From NCBI GenBank assembly GCA_030149205.1, contig JASBSB010000001.1, positions 540,001 to 572,000 of the forward strand: 32,000 nucleotides of DNA, read 5' to 3'. The first letter of the stretch is position 1, and every line of letters starts with the position of its first letter. This DNA is from Candidatus Heimdallarchaeota archaeon (GTDB lineage: Archaea > Asgardarchaeota > Heimdallarchaeia > Heimdallarchaeales > Kariarchaeaceae). A program made the translations under genes and the position numbers. This document shows positions 3,331 through 10,829 of the stretch, piece by piece. The notes under the pieces are model-generated. The model was not told the origin of the DNA. It was given only the letters and a program-made list of their open reading frames with translations, and ran no database searches.

Positions 3331-5847
3331 ATGAAAGAATTTGAAAAAATTTTACATTCCCGAGAAAACTTGAGTACTGATATTCCTTTAAAAACACCAA
3401 CAGCTGAAGGAGAGGGAGGCTGTGGTGTAATTGGATTAGCCTCAAGCTCTCTCATCAAAGGGAAACATCTTAAGAAAGCCATTCAACGGATGCTTAACAG
3501 AGGGAATGGTAAAGGAGGGGGTATTGCAGCAGTTGGTTTATCCCATGAAGATTGGGGTGTTGATAAAGAAACTCTTGAGCAGAATTATCTAATAACCGTT
3601 GCTTTCTTAGACAAATCAATTATTGAAGAGGCTGAAAGTAATTTCATTAGAAAAACATTGGACGTGAAACATGAAGGAACCTTAAAGCTCAAAATTAGCG
3701 AAGAATTACAAGTTGACCCACCCTTAGTAAAGTTTTATTTCGCTAGAGTGAACGAACAGAGTCTATCTAACTTTATGACACAATATGAATTAGAGGATAA
3801 ACAAAAAGCTGAGGATGAATTTATTTACCAAAATTCATTTACACTCAATAAAAATTATTATGAGGCACTTGGAGAGAAAAGAGCATTTGTTTTATCACAT
3901 GGTAAGAACATGACGGTTTTAAAGATAGTGGGACATCCACATCAGGTTTATGAAGTTTATGACATAGATGAATTCAAGGCCCATGTTTGGATCGCACATA
4001 CAAGATATCCTACAAAGGGTATCGTGTGGCATCCAGGGGGTGCACACCCCTTTATTGGATTAAATGAGGCTCTCGTTCATAACGGGGATTTTGCAAATTA
4101 TCAAGGTGTTAGAGAATATTTAGCACAACGTAATATATTTCCCTTGTTTCTTACGGATACTGAAGTCGCAGCTCTTCAGTTTGACCTTTACAGCAGAGTT
4201 TACCAATACACTAATGAGGAAATTATAGAAGCTATGGCTCCTACAACAGAAAGAGATTTTCTGATGCTAGAGCATGATAAACAACAGCTTTACAAAAATA
4301 TCCAAAATAAACATCTACATGGGTCTCCTGATGGACCATGGTTTTTTATAGTGGCTCAGAGCAAACCAACTGAATATGCCTATAACCTTATAGGTATTAC
4401 TGACACGTCCATGTTAAGACCACAGGTCTTTGCTCTATATAACGGCGAAGAATCGATTGGAGTTATTGCCTCAGAGAGACAGGCAATAGATGCAGTATTA
4501 GCATCAATAGCATCTGAAGATAACAGGTTCTCAGCTAAAGCAGATAGGTACTGGAATGCAAGAGGAGGAAGCTATGTTGATGGTGGAGCATTCATTTTTT
4601 CTGTGATCAATAGAAATGACAAAAAGAAATTAATTTGTACTAATAAGTTCGGTGAAGAAATCACCCCAATTGCAAAATCAGACAATAAAGAGCTTGACCC
4701 ATTTATTAAATCGATTATTTTATCTTCAAACATCCTTGGTGATGTAGAAGCTACAGAGTTAATCAATAATAACACGTCTATTTTCCAACTGATTGAGAGT
4801 ATTAGAAATCTTAATGAAAATTCACTTGATGATAAATTCAACAAATTTCGTTTGCTTTCACACATCTTGGATCGAAAACATCTCATTCCAAACTCTTTTG
4901 ATGGTCGAATTACAGAAATCTTGGAAACAACAATCAATGGTATACTAGATGAATTTCCGATAATTGGAGAGAAACAGAAAATTGTTAAAATCGATTATGA
5001 TTCAAGAGACAATCTGATTGAACCAACTGACAATGACCAGATGCTAGTTTATAATGTAGCCAAATTCCAATCTGAGGGAGTTGAAAGTGCCTCAAGACAG
5101 CTTGTAGAAATTTATAAAATGGGATGGAAGAAAGTTATCAGTTACAATTGGGAAGGACAGAGATTCTGTGGGGCTGGTTTAGGACCTAATTCACATGGAT
5201 TTGAACTCCATGTATTTGGGAATCCAGGAGATTACCTTGCCTCAGGGTTGGATGGTGCGGAAATTTATGTGCATACATCTGCCCAAGATCAGGTTGCTCA
5301 AATCATGAGAAGTGGTAAATTAGTAATTTATGGGGATGTTGGTCAGACTTTCATGTATGGTGCCAAAGGTGGTGAGGTCTATGTGTTGGGAAACGCTGCG
5401 GGTCGTCCACTAATCAATGCTGGAGGGAAACCACATGTTATTATTAATGGGACATGCCTTGATTACCTCGCAGAATCATTTATGGCTGCTGACCCTCTCA
5501 GAGGTGGTGGATTTGTTTTGTTGAATGGTTTAACTTTTGATAATGAAGGTGACCCAGTCAATTTACCGACGTCTTATTCTGGTGGAAATCTTTTTTCCCT
5601 AGCTGCAGGGGGCGCAATTTACCTCAGAGACCCTTATGACACAGTTCATGAGGATCAACTTCATGGTGGAGAGTTTATTGAACTTTCAATAAATGATTTT
5701 GATTTAATACACCAATACCTGATGAATAATTTAGATTTATTTGGGTTTTCAGTTTCTACTGAGAAAGATGAGACCAATCATGATGTGTATCTGAAAGCGT
5801 ACAAAAAGATAATTCCCCTAAAAAACACTGAACTTACTAAACATTAA
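3331..5847 (+). CDS. Glutamate synthase class II glutamine amidotransferase domain fused to a C-terminal GXGXG domain (GltB1+GltB3)
   Basis: EGEGG-CGVIG (Ntn Cys31 after a 30-aa propeptide), RGNGKGGG, HTRYPT, AHPF, HNGDFAN, TDTE, DGP, LRPQ, ASE; C-terminal GQRFCGAG, GNPGDYLASGLDG, YGAKGG, GNAAGRP repeats. GGAGG SD; ATG abuts the upstream TAA. Confidence 0.9.
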   Translation: MKEFEKILHSRENLSTDIPLKTPTAEGEGGCGVIGLASSSLIKGKHLKKAIQRMLNRGNGKGGGIAAVGLSHEDWGVDKETLEQNYLITVAFLDKSIIEEAESNFIRKTLDVKHEGTLKLKISEELQVDPPLVKFYFARVNEQSLSNFMTQYELEDKQKAEDEFIYQNSFTLNKNYYEALGEKRAFVLSHGKNMTVLKIVGHPHQVYEVYDIDEFKAHVWIAHTRYPTKGIVWHPGGAHPFIGLNEALVHNGDFANYQGVREYLAQRNIFPLFLTDTEVAALQFDLYSRVYQYTNEEIIEAMAPTTERDFLMLEHDKQQLYKNIQNKHLHGSPDGPWFFIVAQSKPTEYAYNLIGITDTSMLRPQVFALYNGEESIGVIASERQAIDAVLASIASEDNRFSAKADRYWNARGGSYVDGGAFIFSVINRNDKKKLICTNKFGEEITPIAKSDNKELDPFIKSIILSSNILGDVEATELINNNTSIFQLIESIRNLNENSLDDKFNKFRLLSHILDRKHLIPNSFDGRITEILETTINGILDEFPIIGEKQKIVKIDYDSRDNLIEPTDNDQMLVYNVAKFQSEGVESASRQLVEIYKMGWKKVISYNWEGQRFCGAGLGPNSHGFELHVFGNPGDYLASGLDGAEIYVHTSAQDQVAQIMRSGKLVIYGDVGQTFMYGAKGGEVYVLGNAAGRPLINAGGKPHVIINGTCLDYLAESFMAADPLRGGGFVLLNGLTFDNEGDPVNLPTSYSGGNLFSLAAGGAIYLRDPYDTVHEDQLHGGEFIELSINDFDLIHQYLMNNLDLFGFSVSTEKDETNHDVYLKAYKKIIPLKNTELTKH

Positions 5848-5874
5848 ACAATTCAAATTCAATATAATTTGATA

Positions 5875-6708
5875 ATGGTGAATTTCCCATCTGAAGAAGA
5901 ATTCATTGAAATGATCGAGAAATCGAAACAGAAATCTCTTGCTAAAGACCCTATAGTCTACATCAAACCGCCCGTGATACTATTAGGGGATATTCACGGA
6001 GATGTTGAAAGTCTAGTAAAGGGGATTAAACTTGCAGAAGATGAAAACATTGAACAAATTATATTGCTAGGTGACGTGATAGATCGTGGTGAATATCAGA
6101 TCGAGGTCTTCTTAGAGGTGCTAAAAAAGAGAGAGAATTTGCAGATTATACATATCAGGGGGAATCATGAGGATCTAAGTATCAGTAATCGATTTGGGTT
6201 CATTGAAGTGATAAGAAAGCATTTTTCAGAAAAGGTTGTTGATAAAATAGGGGAATATTTTTCTTCATTGAGTGTTGCGTGCATTATTGAAGGAATTGCC
6301 TTCTGCGCACATGGCGGGTTTCCTTTGGGAATAAAAGATTTAAAGCAGATTAGAAAAGATGGTCCAGTTGTTGAGAACCAAATTACCAGAGAAATTCTTT
6401 GGAATGATCCAGTTGAAGGATGGAAAAACTACATTGAATTTGAAAATATTGATGATTTCGGTGATTTACGTATTGATAACCCTCGAGGTATAGGTTATCT
6501 ATTCACTAAAAGTCAAGCAAAAAAATTTTTGGAGGAACATCAACTAAAGTACTTAATCAGGGCACATATAGCACTTAGGTCAGGATATATCTGGTATAAT
6601 GATTACACTCTCTCAGTTTTTTCTTCAGCTTCTGGACCATACAAGGGGTTTGAAAGAGCCCAGTTAATCATAAATGAAGAGGGAGAACTGAGATTAAAGA
6701 AATTTTGA
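5875..6708 (+). CDS. PPP-family serine/threonine protein phosphatase
   Basis: GDIHGD, GDVIDRG, RGNHE, HGG, EILWNDP, RGIGYLF, LIRAH, SVFSSA. ATG at 5875 chosen over TTG at 5869. Confidence 0.9.
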   Translation: MVNFPSEEEFIEMIEKSKQKSLAKDPIVYIKPPVILLGDIHGDVESLVKGIKLAEDENIEQIILLGDVIDRGEYQIEVFLEVLKKRENLQIIHIRGNHEDLSISNRFGFIEVIRKHFSEKVVDKIGEYFSSLSVACIIEGIAFCAHGGFPLGIKDLKQIRKDGPVVENQITREILWNDPVEGWKNYIEFENIDDFGDLRIDNPRGIGYLFTKSQAKKFLEEHQLKYLIRAHIALRSGYIWYNDYTLSVFSSASGPYKGFERAQLIINEEGELRLKKF

Positions 6709-6720
6709 ACACTGGATTTA

Positions 6721-8472
6721 GTGATGAGCCACAAAGATAATAACCAACGTGAAAAAAATATATTTGGAAATAGCTTGTCGAAAGGGTTGACTGTAATAAT
6801 TCTGATTGAAATCTTCCTAATTAGCTTAGGAACCTCTTCAAACAGCTTTATCATACCCTCAAGTAGTCATTATCAGAGTCCTATTAATATGAGTGTGAAT
6901 CAAGGCAGTTCAATTGATCTAACACTAAATATATCCAAAATAAACATAGAAAGGGGAAACAATTTTTTCATCCTTTATGGAGTCACGAATAAAACAAATC
7001 CAACCCAGTACTTATCTGGCTACGAGTTTCACCTCTACACAAAAAAAACTTCCAGTAACAGTTCAATTACCCTGTTGAATGGTACCTCTTCTAACTTTTT
7101 AGGAAATTTTACTGTAGAAACTTACTTTTCAGAAAAACCTCTAACAGTTGGGAACTATTCACTGTTTTTAGATGTAAACACAACAAAAGGTATCGTGTCT
7201 AAGAATACCACATATAGTATCTTTGCTAGTCCCCAAGCTAATGTAATTTTCCGATTTTTCCCAGGAAGTAACCTGAATGTAAATTTAAACCAACTCGTTA
7301 ACGTTTCTCTAATCATTGAAAATATAGGGGAATCGAACGCATTCAATGTCTCTAGTATTGTTCAAAGTTTAAACGAACCAATCGGGATAAATGAAACTAT
7401 ATTTCCAGTTAATATGGCAATCCTCACTCCAAATAAAAGAATACAACTCAATTTTACTATCAAACCAACTAGGGTAGGATTAGGCGCTTTAGACCTGCTA
7501 ACCTCTTATTCAACTATAAACAATGTGAAGACGCTGAAAACAATCCAACTATTCATTACAGTTAAACCAAAGTTAGTAGTTGAATTTAACCCAAAAGATC
7601 AACTCCTATTTTCGAACACTACAACAGTATCTGTTCAAATAAGAAACCTTGAGAACTTTTCTGTAATTATTTCGATCTCCTTAACGTCAGACCTAATTAA
7701 CTTTAACCAACCGATTGAAACAAAAGCTCATGAACTTCCAGCTCTTTATACTCAAAATATTGAATTCATTGGAAATGTATTAAAAACTGGAGCCGCGTCA
7801 TTAACACTTACTGTAATTTTCTATGATCAGGACGGGAGTGGCTCAATCCCTATATTTATTATAACAAGAATTGTGCTCATTCAATCCAACCAAATCCCCC
7901 CGTCTCTCTTGACTGATTATTTACTTTTAGTTGTCCAGCTACTTGGTTATATCTCACTCGCAATATTGATTTTAGGGAGTGTATGGCTTTATTTTGACAA
8001 AGAGAACAGGTATAAACTTATTTCAAGAGTTATTCCCAAGAATCCTGCAGATCGACTGAAATTACCAGGTAATTCTATAATTGTAGATGGTTCAAATGTC
8101 GCTTGGGAGATTCCCGAAAAAGGTAGAGCAAATTTGAATAATTTAGACCTAGCAATTAAAACGCTTAAGAATAAGGGATTCAAGGATATTGTTATTGTGG
8201 TAGATGCTGCCCTGAGATATCAGGTTCAAAATAAAGATCAGTTTGACAAATTGGTGAAAGAAGGAAAACTTAAGGTAATGCCTGCGAAAGTTAATGGAGA
8301 CCAGTTTATCTTGAGGTTAAGTGATGAACGGAATGCCTTCATCTTATCTAATGATTTATTCAAAGAGTTCAGAGAAGAATTTACAAACATTGATGATAAG
8401 AGGGTACCGTATACGATTTTAGATGGAATATTATATTTACATCCTCTCGCAACCGATCATAAGAGTGAATGA
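6721..8472 (+). CDS. Single-pass membrane protein: signal/TM, glycosylated beta-rich ectodomain, TM helix, cytosolic Zc3h12a/Regnase-like PIN (NYN) RNase domain
   Basis: Hydrophobic N-terminus (aa ~22-40); many N-x-S/T sequons in aa 60-330; TM DYLLLVVQLLGYISLAILILGSVWLYF (aa 399-425); then IVDGSNVAW (D456), VVDAALRY, NGDQFIL, ILSNDLFKEF. Confidence 0.8.
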   Translation: MMSHKDNNQREKNIFGNSLSKGLTVIILIEIFLISLGTSSNSFIIPSSSHYQSPINMSVNQGSSIDLTLNISKINIERGNNFFILYGVTNKTNPTQYLSGYEFHLYTKKTSSNSSITLLNGTSSNFLGNFTVETYFSEKPLTVGNYSLFLDVNTTKGIVSKNTTYSIFASPQANVIFRFFPGSNLNVNLNQLVNVSLIIENIGESNAFNVSSIVQSLNEPIGINETIFPVNMAILTPNKRIQLNFTIKPTRVGLGALDLLTSYSTINNVKTLKTIQLFITVKPKLVVEFNPKDQLLFSNTTTVSVQIRNLENFSVIISISLTSDLINFNQPIETKAHELPALYTQNIEFIGNVLKTGAASLTLTVIFYDQDGSGSIPIFIITRIVLIQSNQIPPSLLTDYLLLVVQLLGYISLAILILGSVWLYFDKENRYKLISRVIPKNPADRLKLPGNSIIVDGSNVAWEIPEKGRANLNNLDLAIKTLKNKGFKDIVIVVDAALRYQVQNKDQFDKLVKEGKLKVMPAKVNGDQFILRLSDERNAFILSNDLFKEFREEFTNIDDKRVPYTILDGILYLHPLATDHKSE

Positions 8473-8521: not shown

Positions 8522-10135
8522 TTGTTTCTTGTGAAATTTGAGATTTTAATAGGATTATTGCTCATTTCAGTGCTAAACTCTACATCTACACCTGATATTG
8601 TTACCTCTTTAGAAGATGATTCGTTGATACTTAAACCCAAATCTTCTACAAACAAAAATATTATTTTTATGATAGGAGATGGAATGGGTAGCGAAGAAAT
8701 AAAGCTCGCGAGCTTAATAGAATATGGAATAATTAATGGATCCATTTTTGAAGAGTTCCCTAGTCAGGCATGGTATTCTACTGATGATATTCACGGAAAA
8801 ATAACAGATAGTGCAGCTTCTGGAACTGCTTTGGCAACGGGCCAGCTGACGGCAAATTCGATGGTTGGGATTGACACAAAATCTGTTCCAATCAAGACAA
8901 TTCTGGAATATTTAAAAGATGATTTTAATTATTCTACTGGTATTGTTACAACAACAGAGATTGCTCATGCAACACCTGCTACGTTTGCAGCACATGCAAA
9001 GCATAGAGATTTGAAGACCAAGATTAGAGATCAGCTTCTTTCTCAAAACATAGACGTGGTACTCGGTGGTGGGTTAGGAGGAACCTACATAGGAGGAAGG
9101 TCAGGAGCCCAGAATTTGGCGAATAATCATAATTACACATTAGTTACCAACACTAGTGAATTAAACCAAATCTCAAATTCCACTGATTCCTTATTGGGTT
9201 TATTTGGGTATTATAATATAGATTACGAATTGGAAAGAAACCCCCAGGAAAGTCCATCGCTTCAAGAAATGACTAGCAAGGCTCTTCAATTGTTAGATTC
9301 AAAGAACAAACCCTTTTTCGTAATGATAGAAGGTGGAAGAATAGATCATGCAGGTCATCTGCTAAATTCATTTCAAAACAAAACTATCTACAATGCGTTA
9401 GAAACTATTAACTTCGAAAAATCAGTAAGGGTGGCATATGAATATGCGAAAGCTCATCCCAACACCATATTAATAACAACTGCAGATCATGAAACCGGGG
9501 GATTAAAAGTTCATGACTTTTCAAACCTTGACAAAACACTTCCTGATGATAAAAATAGTAGAAACAAAAATAACGAGATCAGATATAACCGATCATTACA
9601 GATAGATACTAGTTGGTTAACAACATCTCACACAGGTCAAAAAGTGAGGTTTTCAGGGTACGGATTCGATTTTAACACTTCGAAAATCCAAAAGAACACT
9701 GATGTGTTCTGGGCCCTTAATGAGGCGCTAGGTAATTTCCCTGTGATTCGAACAGACTATCCAAAATCTGGACAAATTGGAAAACTTAGTTTTAGAGTTG
9801 TAGGGTCTCAGTTAGAACCAATTAATTATAATTATAGAAGTACTGAAGTTCAAAGTGGTAAAGTTGTAATTGGTAATTGGACTGAGTCTACAAAAAATAC
9901 CACAATTACATTAACCTTTGAAAGTAGTGAAAACACATCAATTGTGGTTCAAATACTAGTTAAGGATGTGGAGACCTCTATTAAAACCAGCTCATTAAAG
10001 TTCCATCTGGCGATTTATAAGGGTCAAGCACCAATCAGTTCAACCAACAATGTATCATATCTAAATTCAATGAATCTTGTTTTAGTTTTAATATTTATTT
10101 CTTTGAAGTTACGAAAAATTAGAGGGACAAGCTAG
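8522..10135 (+). CDS. phoA: Alkaline phosphatase (PhoA family), secreted with a C-terminal membrane anchor
   Basis: IFMIGDGMG, ITDSAASGTALATG (catalytic Ser), HATPATF, FFVMIEGGRIDHAGH, TADHETGG; signal peptide; C-terminal hydrophobic segment plus KLRKIR. Confidence 0.92.
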   Translation: MFLVKFEILIGLLLISVLNSTSTPDIVTSLEDDSLILKPKSSTNKNIIFMIGDGMGSEEIKLASLIEYGIINGSIFEEFPSQAWYSTDDIHGKITDSAASGTALATGQLTANSMVGIDTKSVPIKTILEYLKDDFNYSTGIVTTTEIAHATPATFAAHAKHRDLKTKIRDQLLSQNIDVVLGGGLGGTYIGGRSGAQNLANNHNYTLVTNTSELNQISNSTDSLLGLFGYYNIDYELERNPQESPSLQEMTSKALQLLDSKNKPFFVMIEGGRIDHAGHLLNSFQNKTIYNALETINFEKSVRVAYEYAKAHPNTILITTADHETGGLKVHDFSNLDKTLPDDKNSRNKNNEIRYNRSLQIDTSWLTTSHTGQKVRFSGYGFDFNTSKIQKNTDVFWALNEALGNFPVIRTDYPKSGQIGKLSFRVVGSQLEPINYNYRSTEVQSGKVVIGNWTESTKNTTITLTFESSENTSIVVQILVKDVETSIKTSSLKFHLAIYKGQAPISSTNNVSYLNSMNLVLVLIFISLKLRKIRGTS

Positions 10136-10180: not shown

Positions 10181-10199
10181 AACCTCTCAGTGGTTGGAT

Positions 10200-10829
10200 A
10201 TGGAAGAACAACTTGCTTCCCAGATCACCAAGATTGTCGAGGGTATAGTAACTGATTTAGACGAATTGGATGAACTCAGAGAAGATGTTATTGCTTTGTC
10301 TCGAAAGTTAAATAGAATGTCAGGGAAGGCAATAGCAAGGATTGTGAATTTATCTCAAGAGCCCTCATTGATTAAGGGAGCAAGAGAATTCAAAACTGCC
10401 CTTGATATTAAGTTGTCAAAATTTACACCGTTTTTTGGGTGGAACACTGTTAATGATGGACTTGAAGAATTTACTGAGATGGAACTTCTTTATGCGATAA
10501 TCTCGGATCGAGAGCTTCCCTCTCCACAATCATTAAATATACCAAGCTCTATTTGGATAAATGCTTTCTGCGACACTATCGGAGAACTAAGAAGGGTTAT
10601 ACTTCGCTTGTTAATCTCACAAAAGGTTGAGAATGCAAGAAAATACCTTGATATAATGAATCTAATGTTTGAAAATATTATTGGGATAGAGTATGGAAAA
10701 CATGTGGCTGGAAATCTTAGGAAAAAAATTGATTACCTGAGAGTCACTATAGAGAGAACTGAGAGTGATTTCTTACATTCTATGCTAGGGAATCAAATTC
10801 AAGACAGTTTGGATGCAAGCGAGGATTAA
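10200..10829 (+). CDS. Translin/TRAX family protein, copy 1
   Basis: REDVIALSRKL, GLEEFTEMELL, CDTIGELRRVIL, LRKKID; all-helical, 209 aa. ATG at 10200 matches the start of copy 2. Confidence 0.85.
   Translation: MEEQLASQITKIVEGIVTDLDELDELREDVIALSRKLNRMSGKAIARIVNLSQEPSLIKGAREFKTALDIKLSKFTPFFGWNTVNDGLEEFTEMELLYAIISDRELPSPQSLNIPSSIWINAFCDTIGELRRVILRLLISQKVENARKYLDIMNLMFENIIGIEYGKHVAGNLRKKIDYLRVTIERTESDFLHSMLGNQIQDSLDASED

Follow-up and report, generated by a model that had tools for sequence, protein, structure and literature searches.

Zc3h12a-type NYN/PIN domains (PF11977) are the catalytic domains that eukaryotes use in Regnase-1/MCPIP1 (ZC3H12A), ZC3H12B-D, KHNYN and N4BP1, which are soluble proteins. 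Among RNases of other families that are placed at membranes, RNase Y consists of an N-terminal transmembrane (TM) segment followed by KH and HD domains, and IRE1, which is activated by oligomerisation, is a type I single-pass protein whose sensor domain is non-cytoplasmic and whose endoribonuclease is cytoplasmic. Here we describe a gene encoding a 583-amino-acid (aa) protein in which a Zc3h12a-type domain, predicted to be a cytoplasmic endoribonuclease, follows a single predicted TM helix and an ectodomain of three predicted beta-sandwich domains. The gene lies in a 32,000-nucleotide stretch (the window) of a Candidatus Heimdallarchaeota archaeon assembly (GCA_030149205.1, contig JASBSB010000001.1, positions 540,001 to 572,000). 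The protein is a receptor-like variant of a known RNase family, with a new layout and a known domain family. RNA decay in Asgard archaea is, to our knowledge, almost unstudied, and this family, a predicted membrane-localised endonuclease that is near-universal in one Heimdallarchaeia order, gives a handle on it. The first-pass annotation of the DNA, made from its sequence, knew of no characterised example, and the literature searched indeed yielded no paper that describes the present layout or, in archaea, any Zc3h12a-type RNase of a membrane-anchored or receptor-like kind.

The likeness to IRE1 is an analogy of layout only, since the archaeal protein has neither the kinase nor the KEN RNase domain, the nuclease and ectodomain folds are unrelated, and the two proteins are not homologs. 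With RNase Y, membrane-bound RNase E and the PIN.COG4956/YacL family, the protein shares a cytoplasmic RNase domain kept at the membrane, but these RNases have no substantial extracellular domain, their anchors are N-terminal or amphipathic, and they carry other catalytic or accessory domains. Membrane-anchored PIN-like nucleases are nevertheless precedented, because the predicted PIN.COG4956/YacL family combines four TM segments with PIN and TRAM domains (PMC5499597). The closest sequence relatives are the prokaryotic PF11977 proteins, for which 154 bacterial and 23 archaeal sequences of unknown function have been reported (PMC5499597), and with which the archaeal protein has a common signature, DGSNVA...DAALRYQ...PA..D.FI...SND.FKE. 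These relatives, which include the stand-alone Asgard NYN proteins of about 170 aa and a 172-aa paralog in the genome studied here, are mostly soluble, unlike the Heimdall membrane form. Prokaryotic stand-alone NYN proteins are 33-44% identical to the query domain. The first-pass annotation had regarded RNases of this type as normally soluble, which is mostly true, although several prokaryotic PF11977 lineages are in fact membrane-tethered.

The relationship with the eukaryotic proteins is more distant. They belong to the same domain family and have the same fold, but the archaeal protein is just 20-26% identical to ZC3H12/KHNYN, lacks the equivalent of D225 of Regnase-1 and has an additional Asp, D495. 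The accessory domains of the eukaryotic proteins (CCCH zinc finger, KH, UBA and Regnase C-terminal domain) are also missing from it, and it is membrane-anchored with an extracellular part. Judged by these sequence comparisons, it is not a Regnase/ZC3H12 ortholog.

Several independent searches identify the C-terminal domain. PF11977 (RNase_Zc3h12a) is the one Pfam family matched in the protein, at aa 452-566 (E 7.1e-16), and its score of 58.8 bits, compared with a curated cut-off of 23, places the match far beyond chance. The family is present in all of the homologs found, and NCBIfam and PADLOC (PADLOC-DB 2.0) searches with the protein returned no family. A sequence search of the Protein Data Bank (PDB) returned ZC3H12B, KHNYN, ZC3H12C and Regnase-1, with E values from 1e-5 to 8e-3. 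In these alignments, DGSNVA, D-x-F-I and SND-x3-E fall on the corresponding Regnase-family motifs (DGSN, D-RF and SND-x3-D), and the alignment with KHNYN includes the C-terminal beta-hairpin extension of the archaeal domain. The domain was also modelled alone, on 54 sequences, with a predicted local distance difference test (pLDDT) score of 94.6. The best 23 Foldseek matches of this model are all ZC3H12B/C, KHNYN or MCPIP1 (E down to 1e-9, TM-score about 0.75), and its best VIA match is the PIN domain of ZC3H12C (7ndj_A; Z 16.0, root-mean-square deviation 2.4 over 134 aa), followed by PRORP1 (Z 12.2), with flap nucleases and VapC-type PIN domains at Z 5-8. As modelled, the C-terminal domain is a genuine Zc3h12a-type PIN fold with an extended sheet, within the PRORP group of PIN-like domains, which bears out the Regnase-like PIN domain of the first-pass annotation.

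The catalytic set of Regnase-1 comprises D141, D225, D226, D244 and D248 (PMC5499597). Mapped through the PDB alignments, D456, N459, D527, D545 and E549 of the query correspond to D141, N144, D226, D244 and D248 of Regnase-1, respectively, whereas the position of D225 is occupied by G526 in the query and by Ala or Gly in the orthologs, so that the fifth acidic residue is not kept. D495, which belongs to the motif VDA, aligns with a Pro of ZC3H12B/C and has no catalytic counterpart in Regnase. This residue is specific to the prokaryotic forms, nearly invariant among the prokaryotic relatives, and may compensate for the missing D225. The first-pass annotation had assigned four motifs, DGSNVA (aa 456-461), VDA (aa 494-496), GDQFIL (aa 526-531) and SND (aa 543-545), to the acidic site of Regnase-1. 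The assignment holds for DGSN, for D527 of the GD pair and for SND, but not for the D495 of VDA, nor for D225, which is Gly or Ala here.

Invariance was scored over 17 full-length homologs, which are also the orthologs compared below. Within the NYN domain, invariant positions include D456, G457, S458, N459, W462, D495, R499, Y500, D527, R532, N544, D545 and E549. Among these, R499 and Y500 sit in the segment equivalent to W182-R183-K184 of Regnase-1, which is required for activity (PMC4772114). The acidic site is intact but prokaryotic in flavour, with four of the five acidic positions and the Asn kept, and the domain is under strong purifying selection at all metal-ligand positions. From these residues, we infer a catalytically competent, metal-dependent RNase. 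Beyond the NYN domain, Pfam detects no CCCH, KH or other accessory RNA-binding domain in the 158-aa cytoplasmic part, and the protein ends 8 residues past the NYN domain.

A Kyte-Doolittle scan finds only two hydrophobic segments, at aa 18-45 and aa 396-426. In most orthologs, a short basic n-region precedes a hydrophobic core of 15-20 residues, as in a Sec signal peptide, and all 17 have a hydrophobic segment at the TM position. Six Lys or Arg residues are found among the 23 residues past the second hydrophobic segment of the query. In 16 of the 17 orthologs, the 20 residues that follow the TM segment carry a net charge of 0 to +6, the exception being P0019 with -1. The 15 residues that precede the segment have a net charge of -4 to +1. 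The 15 N-X-S/T sequons of the query are all located at aa 56-312, with none after aa 430, and the ortholog set has 206 sequons in the ectodomains versus 11 in the cytoplasmic tails. Sequons are about 2-fold more frequent in the ectodomains than in composition-matched shuffles (p<=0.02 in 14/17), and an STT3/AglB oligosaccharyltransferase is encoded in the genome; the ectodomain is probably N-glycosylated by AglB.

The AlphaFold2 model of the whole protein, built with 17 homologs in the alignment, has a mean pLDDT of 81.9. From the N- to the C-terminus, it shows a low-confidence helix, three all-beta domains, a helix at aa 394-425, a short helix at aa 427-437, a disordered stretch at aa 438-447 and an alpha/beta domain at aa 452-573. 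We read the first helix as the signal peptide and the helix at aa 394-425 as the TM helix. Together, hydropathy, positive-inside charge, sequon distribution and this model predict that the protein has a type I topology and that its NYN domain is cytoplasmic, in agreement with the topology first proposed for the protein, and this location is predicted whether the signal is cleaved or not.

The ectodomain, about 340 aa long, is in the model a series of three tandem immunoglobulin (Ig)-like, perhaps CARDB-like, beta-sandwich domains. The motif N.G.SNAFNVS around the invariant N201 and G203 suits domains of the CARDB type. Pfam returned no family for aa 40-395 at E<=0.01, and there was no profile match to CARDB, NPCBM_assoc (NEW3) or COG1361. 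A language-model feature search gave CARDB/NPCBM_assoc/COG1361 surface-layer (S-layer) clusters at 0.84-0.88, which is below the guide value of 0.9 and is taken as a lead only. Searching Foldseek with the whole model gave generic tandem Ig-like matches alone (pilins, MG domains of alpha-2-macroglobulin, integrin legs), and these generic matches carry no information on a ligand. When the ectodomain was searched against its own genome, the gene itself was the sole match, with no paralogous ectodomain on another effector.

The two halves of the protein evolve differently. Mean pairwise identity among the 17 orthologs is 57% in the NYN domain, 23-25% in each ectodomain module and about 20% in the TM segment plus linker, while the three-domain layout and the length are kept. 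With the ortholog of the same genus, the ectodomain is 35% identical and the NYN domain 68%, compared with 56-77% for the syntenic flanking genes.

A full-length family profile was searched against 251 Asgard genomes. End-to-end, stop-free matches were found in 33 of the 39 genomes of the source order (f1, 7/9; f2, 23/26; f3, 1/1; f4, 2/3), nearly always as one copy per genome, and two complete single-contig genomes carry the full-length gene. The fusion is thus not unique to this assembly, a possibility that the first-pass annotation had set out for checking. Outside the order, the families of the class and phylum covered by this search yielded no full-length form; there, the NYN part or the beta-sandwich part alone matches. 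By their source names, the members belong to Candidatus Kariarchaeaceae, Candidatus Heimdallarchaeum aukensis and "Heimdallarchaeota archaeon", and by those names the order comprises Kariarchaeaceae and Heimdallarchaeaceae. They carry no annotation beyond hypothetical or "NYN domain-containing protein". When 1.84 billion cluster representatives were searched exhaustively with HMMER, 29 matches were obtained at E<=1e-30, nearly all of 540-620 aa and with the domain at the C-terminus.

When 175 NYN domains were placed in a maximum-likelihood tree, those of the Heimdall membrane family formed one clade of 50 rows, 47 classed as full-length and 3 as short or truncated sequences, with a Shimodaira-Hasegawa-like approximate likelihood ratio test (SH-aLRT) value of 99. 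Two metagenomic Regnase-like sequences represented the outgroup. The Regnase-like matches P0180 and P0181 carry PF18039 and PF18561. In the window, the open reading frame is uninterrupted (583 codons), with a TGA stop at 8470-8472; the start is either GTG at 6721 or the next codon, ATG at 6724, where the 582-aa database copy P0002 begins. The same unbroken frame occurs in more than 30 genomes, which rules out an assembly or frameshift artefact.

The layout of signal peptide, ectodomain, TM segment, basic linker and NYN domain recurs with unrelated ectodomains. The Asgard protein P0182 (family f24, genome G053, L028:2157-4169, minus strand; representative P0052) has 670 aa and comprises a signal peptide, a PQQ/BamB-like beta-propeller (PF13570, E 8e-76), a Gly/Ala-rich TM segment, an HKKK sequence and an NYN domain. 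Thermofilaceae metagenome-assembled genomes encode P0089 and P0164 (454 aa), in which TM and NYN segments are joined to an unrelated ectodomain of about 210 aa, the NYN domain of P0089 being 36% identical to the query. P0155 (504 aa) is a further protein with signal, ectodomain, TM segment and NYN domain. The ectodomains of P0089/P0164 and P0155 match neither the query ectodomain nor any Pfam family. A clade represented by P0047 (205 aa) contains short NYN forms with an N-terminal anchor only. In the tree, the other membrane NYN forms fall outside the Heimdall clade, and the starred branches force at least 4 changes of the membrane label. On this sequence evidence, the beta-propeller protein of f24 is a second receptor-like NYN protein that evolved independently.

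We propose the following mechanism. A Sec signal peptide would direct the export of the three Ig-like domains to the cell surface, and the single TM helix and short, flexible basic linker would keep the NYN/PIN domain close to the inner membrane face, at a distance of about 25 residues. The ectodomain would set the lateral clustering of the protein in the membrane, and clustering would raise the local PIN concentration, thereby controlling RNase activity. The substrates would be membrane-proximal RNAs, for example mRNAs translated at the membrane. A receptor-like, metal-dependent endoribonuclease of this kind, with ectodomain-driven clustering setting the cleavage of membrane-proximal RNA, is in our judgement an evenly balanced proposition, in which we infer the RNase activity, the substrate, the N-glycosylation and, above all, the coupling of ectodomain to activity. 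Concentration-dependent activity has a precedent in Regnase-1, whose PIN domain is active only as a head-to-tail dimer, monomeric mutants being inactive in vitro (PMC4772114). Should the ectodomain indeed gate the nuclease, a prokaryotic signalling route would lead directly from the cell surface to RNA cleavage, with no kinase or transcription factor in between.

Three observations speak for a receptor: a three-domain ectodomain of constant layout is retained though one helix would anchor the protein; unrelated ectodomains were recruited independently onto TM and NYN segments, which is the pattern of sensor families; and the flexible, unconserved tether permits clustering. The first-pass interpretation holds in part: architecture, fold, predicted topology and conservation bear it out, whereas outside-in activation and a role in envelope stress or virus sensing would have the independent fusions as their only, indirect, support. 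Other observations weigh on the opposite side. The invariant residues of the ectodomain are few and mostly structural Gly, Pro and Asn, with no conserved ligand site evident among the 17 orthologs, and no conserved operon partner was found in the ortholog neighbourhoods compared, nor any pointing to a pathway. The same tether argues against conformational signalling, so that clustering alone is left. Moreover, the residues through which the Regnase-1 dimer functions, K184 and R214, are said to occur in Regnase-1 alone (PMC4772114), and the dimer precedent may therefore not transfer. The replacement of D225 by Gly or Ala also counts here, and the absence of an accessory RNA-binding domain leaves the choice of substrate unexplained. 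Finally, the function proposed for the family is deduced from sequence and predicted structure.

In the main rival reading, the membrane serves for localisation only. The protein would then be a constitutively active, membrane-tethered RNase that turns over or processes RNA near the membrane, functionally like RNase Y or membrane-bound RNase E, with an ectodomain that anchors, spaces or has a separate surface role. We regard this as possible but somewhat doubtful. The flexible, poorly conserved linker, the unconserved TM sequence and the lack of conserved ligand-site residues in the ectodomain all fit, and so does the housekeeping-like character of a mostly single-copy, order-wide gene found among proteasome, AlaX, ThrRS and glutamate-synthase genes. 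The short forms with an N-terminal anchor alone also show that membrane location is itself selected. Nevertheless, a three-domain ectodomain of about 340 aa is kept across the order although one helix would suffice as an anchor, and unrelated ectodomains joined to TM and NYN segments at least three more times follow the pattern of a sensor family. Even with localisation as its only role, the protein would be the first archaeal counterpart known to us of RNase Y or membrane-bound RNase E.

The low identity of the ectodomain even within the genus (35%, against 68% for the NYN domain and 56-77% for the flanking genes) could instead reflect an antiviral sensor or abortive-infection effector, in which contact of a virus or vesicle with the fast-evolving ectodomain triggers the RNase to destroy viral or host RNA. 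Human Regnases restrict RNA viruses, according to one report (10.64898/2026.07.06.736706), and in another Heimdall-class genome (L033) an NYN domain is fused to a BrxL/Lon-like module. This role is improbable, however, given that nearly all genomes of the order have the gene, mostly in a single copy, in contrast to the patchy spread usual for defence genes, and that it has no PADLOC match and lies in stable synteny with housekeeping neighbours, with no variable or defence island and no conserved partner such as an antitoxin or immunity gene. Very improbable, in our view, is a C-terminal domain that does not act as an RNA endonuclease in vivo and has a DNA or other phosphodiester substrate, or serves as a nucleic-acid-binding or scaffold module. 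Such a role would accommodate the loss of D225, one of the five Regnase acidic positions, the extra invariant D495 that alters the site, and the inclusion of DNA flap nucleases among PIN-like folds, with Z 6-8 to T4 RNase H, ExoIX and FEN-1. The nearest structures are, however, RNA endonucleases by a wide margin (Z 16 for ZC3H12C and 12 for PRORP, against at most 7.7 for DNA flap nucleases), and the strong purifying selection extends to all of the metal-ligand positions.

Returning to the receptor-like endoribonuclease, we may tentatively extend the proposal beyond this family, although we would sooner doubt the extension than rely on it. Archaea would several times independently have evolved single-pass "receptor ribonucleases", in which an external cue is turned directly into RNA cleavage: the extracellular sensor, which varies (triple Ig-like, beta-propeller or another fold), would control a PIN RNase of the Regnase type by clustering it on the inner side of the membrane. 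This would parallel IRE1 with its regulated IRE1-dependent decay (RIDD) and endoplasmic reticulum-associated Regnase-1, and such a receptor ribonuclease would be a core gene in Heimdallarchaeales, to which the genome studied here belongs.

The features of the gene and of its neighbours are collected in Table 1.

Table 1 Coordinates of the membrane NYN gene, its predicted domains and active-site codons, and other genes discussed. Positions are those of the window unless a locus or genome is named.
Feature	Position	Strand	Basis
Whole gene, 583-aa type I membrane protein with C-terminal NYN RNase domain (predicted)	6721..8472	+	Open reading frame list, translation, 17 full-length homologs, matches in 33/39 genomes of the order
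Signal peptide or signal anchor (predicted), aa 1-40, hydrophobic core aa 22-36	6721..6840	+	Kyte-Doolittle hydropathy 1.6-2.0 at aa 16-45; low pLDDT
Ectodomain beta-sandwich domain 1 (predicted), aa 62-168	6904..7224	+	AlphaFold2 model, block pLDDT mostly 86-95, all-beta; no Pfam match
Ectodomain beta-sandwich domain 2 (predicted), aa 175-281, motif N.G.SNAFNVS	7243..7563	+	Model; N201 and G203 invariant
Ectodomain beta-sandwich domain 3 (predicted), membrane-proximal, aa 285-388	7573..7884	+	Model; G351, G357, D369 and G372 conserved
Transmembrane helix (predicted), aa 394-425	7900..7995	+	Kyte-Doolittle hydropathy up to 2.51; helix in model
Basic juxtamembrane linker, aa 426-451: short helix aa 427-437, then flexible part	7996..8073	+	6 Lys/Arg in aa 428-450; pLDDT <50 at aa 438-447; about 20% pairwise identity
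Cytoplasmic Zc3h12a-type NYN/PIN endoribonuclease domain (predicted), aa 452-575	8074..8445	+	PF11977, PDB sequence matches, domain model, Foldseek and VIA, invariant residues
Active-site codon D456	8086-8088	+	Codon checked
Active-site codon N459	8095-8097	+	Codon checked
Active-site codon D495	8203-8205	+	Codon checked
Active-site codon D527	8299-8301	+	Codon checked
Active-site codon D545	8353-8355	+	Codon checked
Active-site codon E549	8365-8367	+	Codon checked
PPP-type calcineurin-like metallophosphatase	5869..6708	+	PF00149, E 4e-23; weak NCBIfam likeness to protein Ser/Thr phosphatases
Alkaline phosphatase, N-terminal signal, many sequons, C-terminal hydrophobic tail ending basic	8522..10135	+	PF00245, E 1.5e-63
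Second PF11977 gene, outside the window	L008:1480-1998; genome NYN match G000:C4 413145-413504	-	

The gene sits in a long co-directional run, 13 bp after the PPP-type metallophosphatase, with which it is probably co-transcribed in the window, and 50 bp before the alkaline phosphatase. In two loci of the same genus, L009 and L010, the ortholog has no PPP phosphatase beside it, and in L013 the phosphatase is about 4 kb off; because this adjacency is lost even inside the genus, a functional tie was rejected. By its sequence, the alkaline phosphatase is probably a surface enzyme with a C-terminal anchor. It shares 60% identity with its ortholog from the same genus, versus 35% for the ectodomain of the NYN protein. 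Only in L002/L009 and L010 is it found downstream of the NYN ortholog, together with a glutamate-synthase synteny limited to the genus, and a functional tie was rejected here as well, since the adjacency is confined to the genus.

Other lineages show other neighbours. In family f2, a 232-aa winged-helix protein and the proteasome alpha and beta genes are found, and in other f1 genomes a 603-aa PIN-domain protein and AlaX lie near the gene in variable orientation. The 603-aa protein has an N-terminal PIN domain (PF01850, E 3.5e-7 in L003) and adjoins or lies near the membrane NYN gene in L001 (6104-7915, plus strand), L003 (6034-7848, minus strand), L011, L012, L018 and L024; AlaX is convergent downstream in the loci with this protein. 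A tie to the proteasome genes in f2 or to the 603-aa PIN protein and AlaX in f1 was rejected, as orientation and spacing vary and the arrangement looks like lineage synteny and not an operon. No mobile-element signature was found in the ortholog neighbourhoods compared, and PADLOC-DB 2.0 gave no match for the protein or its two neighbours, the neighbourhoods being housekeeping and syntenic. In this light, the gene reads as a core gene of the order and not as a defence-island gene.

Two more genes of the window were noted. A 211-aa protein encoded 1.7 kb downstream of the NYN gene (10194-10829, plus strand) has a weak match to the Translin family (PF01997, E 1.9e-4), below the cut-off, and a homolog of it occurs near the homolog of the PPP phosphatase in L013. 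Two glutamate-synthase FMN-barrel genes are followed by the gene of an 838-aa protein (3331-5847, plus strand), which has a glutamine-amidotransferase-like N-terminal part and a GXGXG domain (PF01493). The synteny of this block is kept inside the genus.

NYN domains are also found in other contexts in Asgard archaea. The stand-alone proteins have about 170 aa; in family f10, an NYN match is present in 52 of the 59 genomes, in an open frame of typically about 165-200 aa. The domain is further found at the C-terminus of soluble proteins of 450-1000 aa with TPR repeats, a BrxL/Lon-like ATPase-protease or unknown regions. One of these, in genome G211 of family f5 in the same class (L033:26-1957, plus strand), joins a BrxL-like ATPase (PF13337, E 2e-100) and a Lon_C protease to a C-terminal NYN domain and is defence-flavoured. 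Asgard genomes also encode a TPR and NYN combination (L036) and an HhH and NYN combination with C-terminal TM segments (L035). The genome studied here itself contains a second PF11977 gene, encoding a soluble 172-aa protein with an N-terminal C2H2-like motif (C-x2-C ... H-x4-H) and an NYN domain (VVDGNNVA, ITND), a pairing of zinc finger and NYN domain that recalls the PIN and CCCH pairing of Regnase in reversed order.

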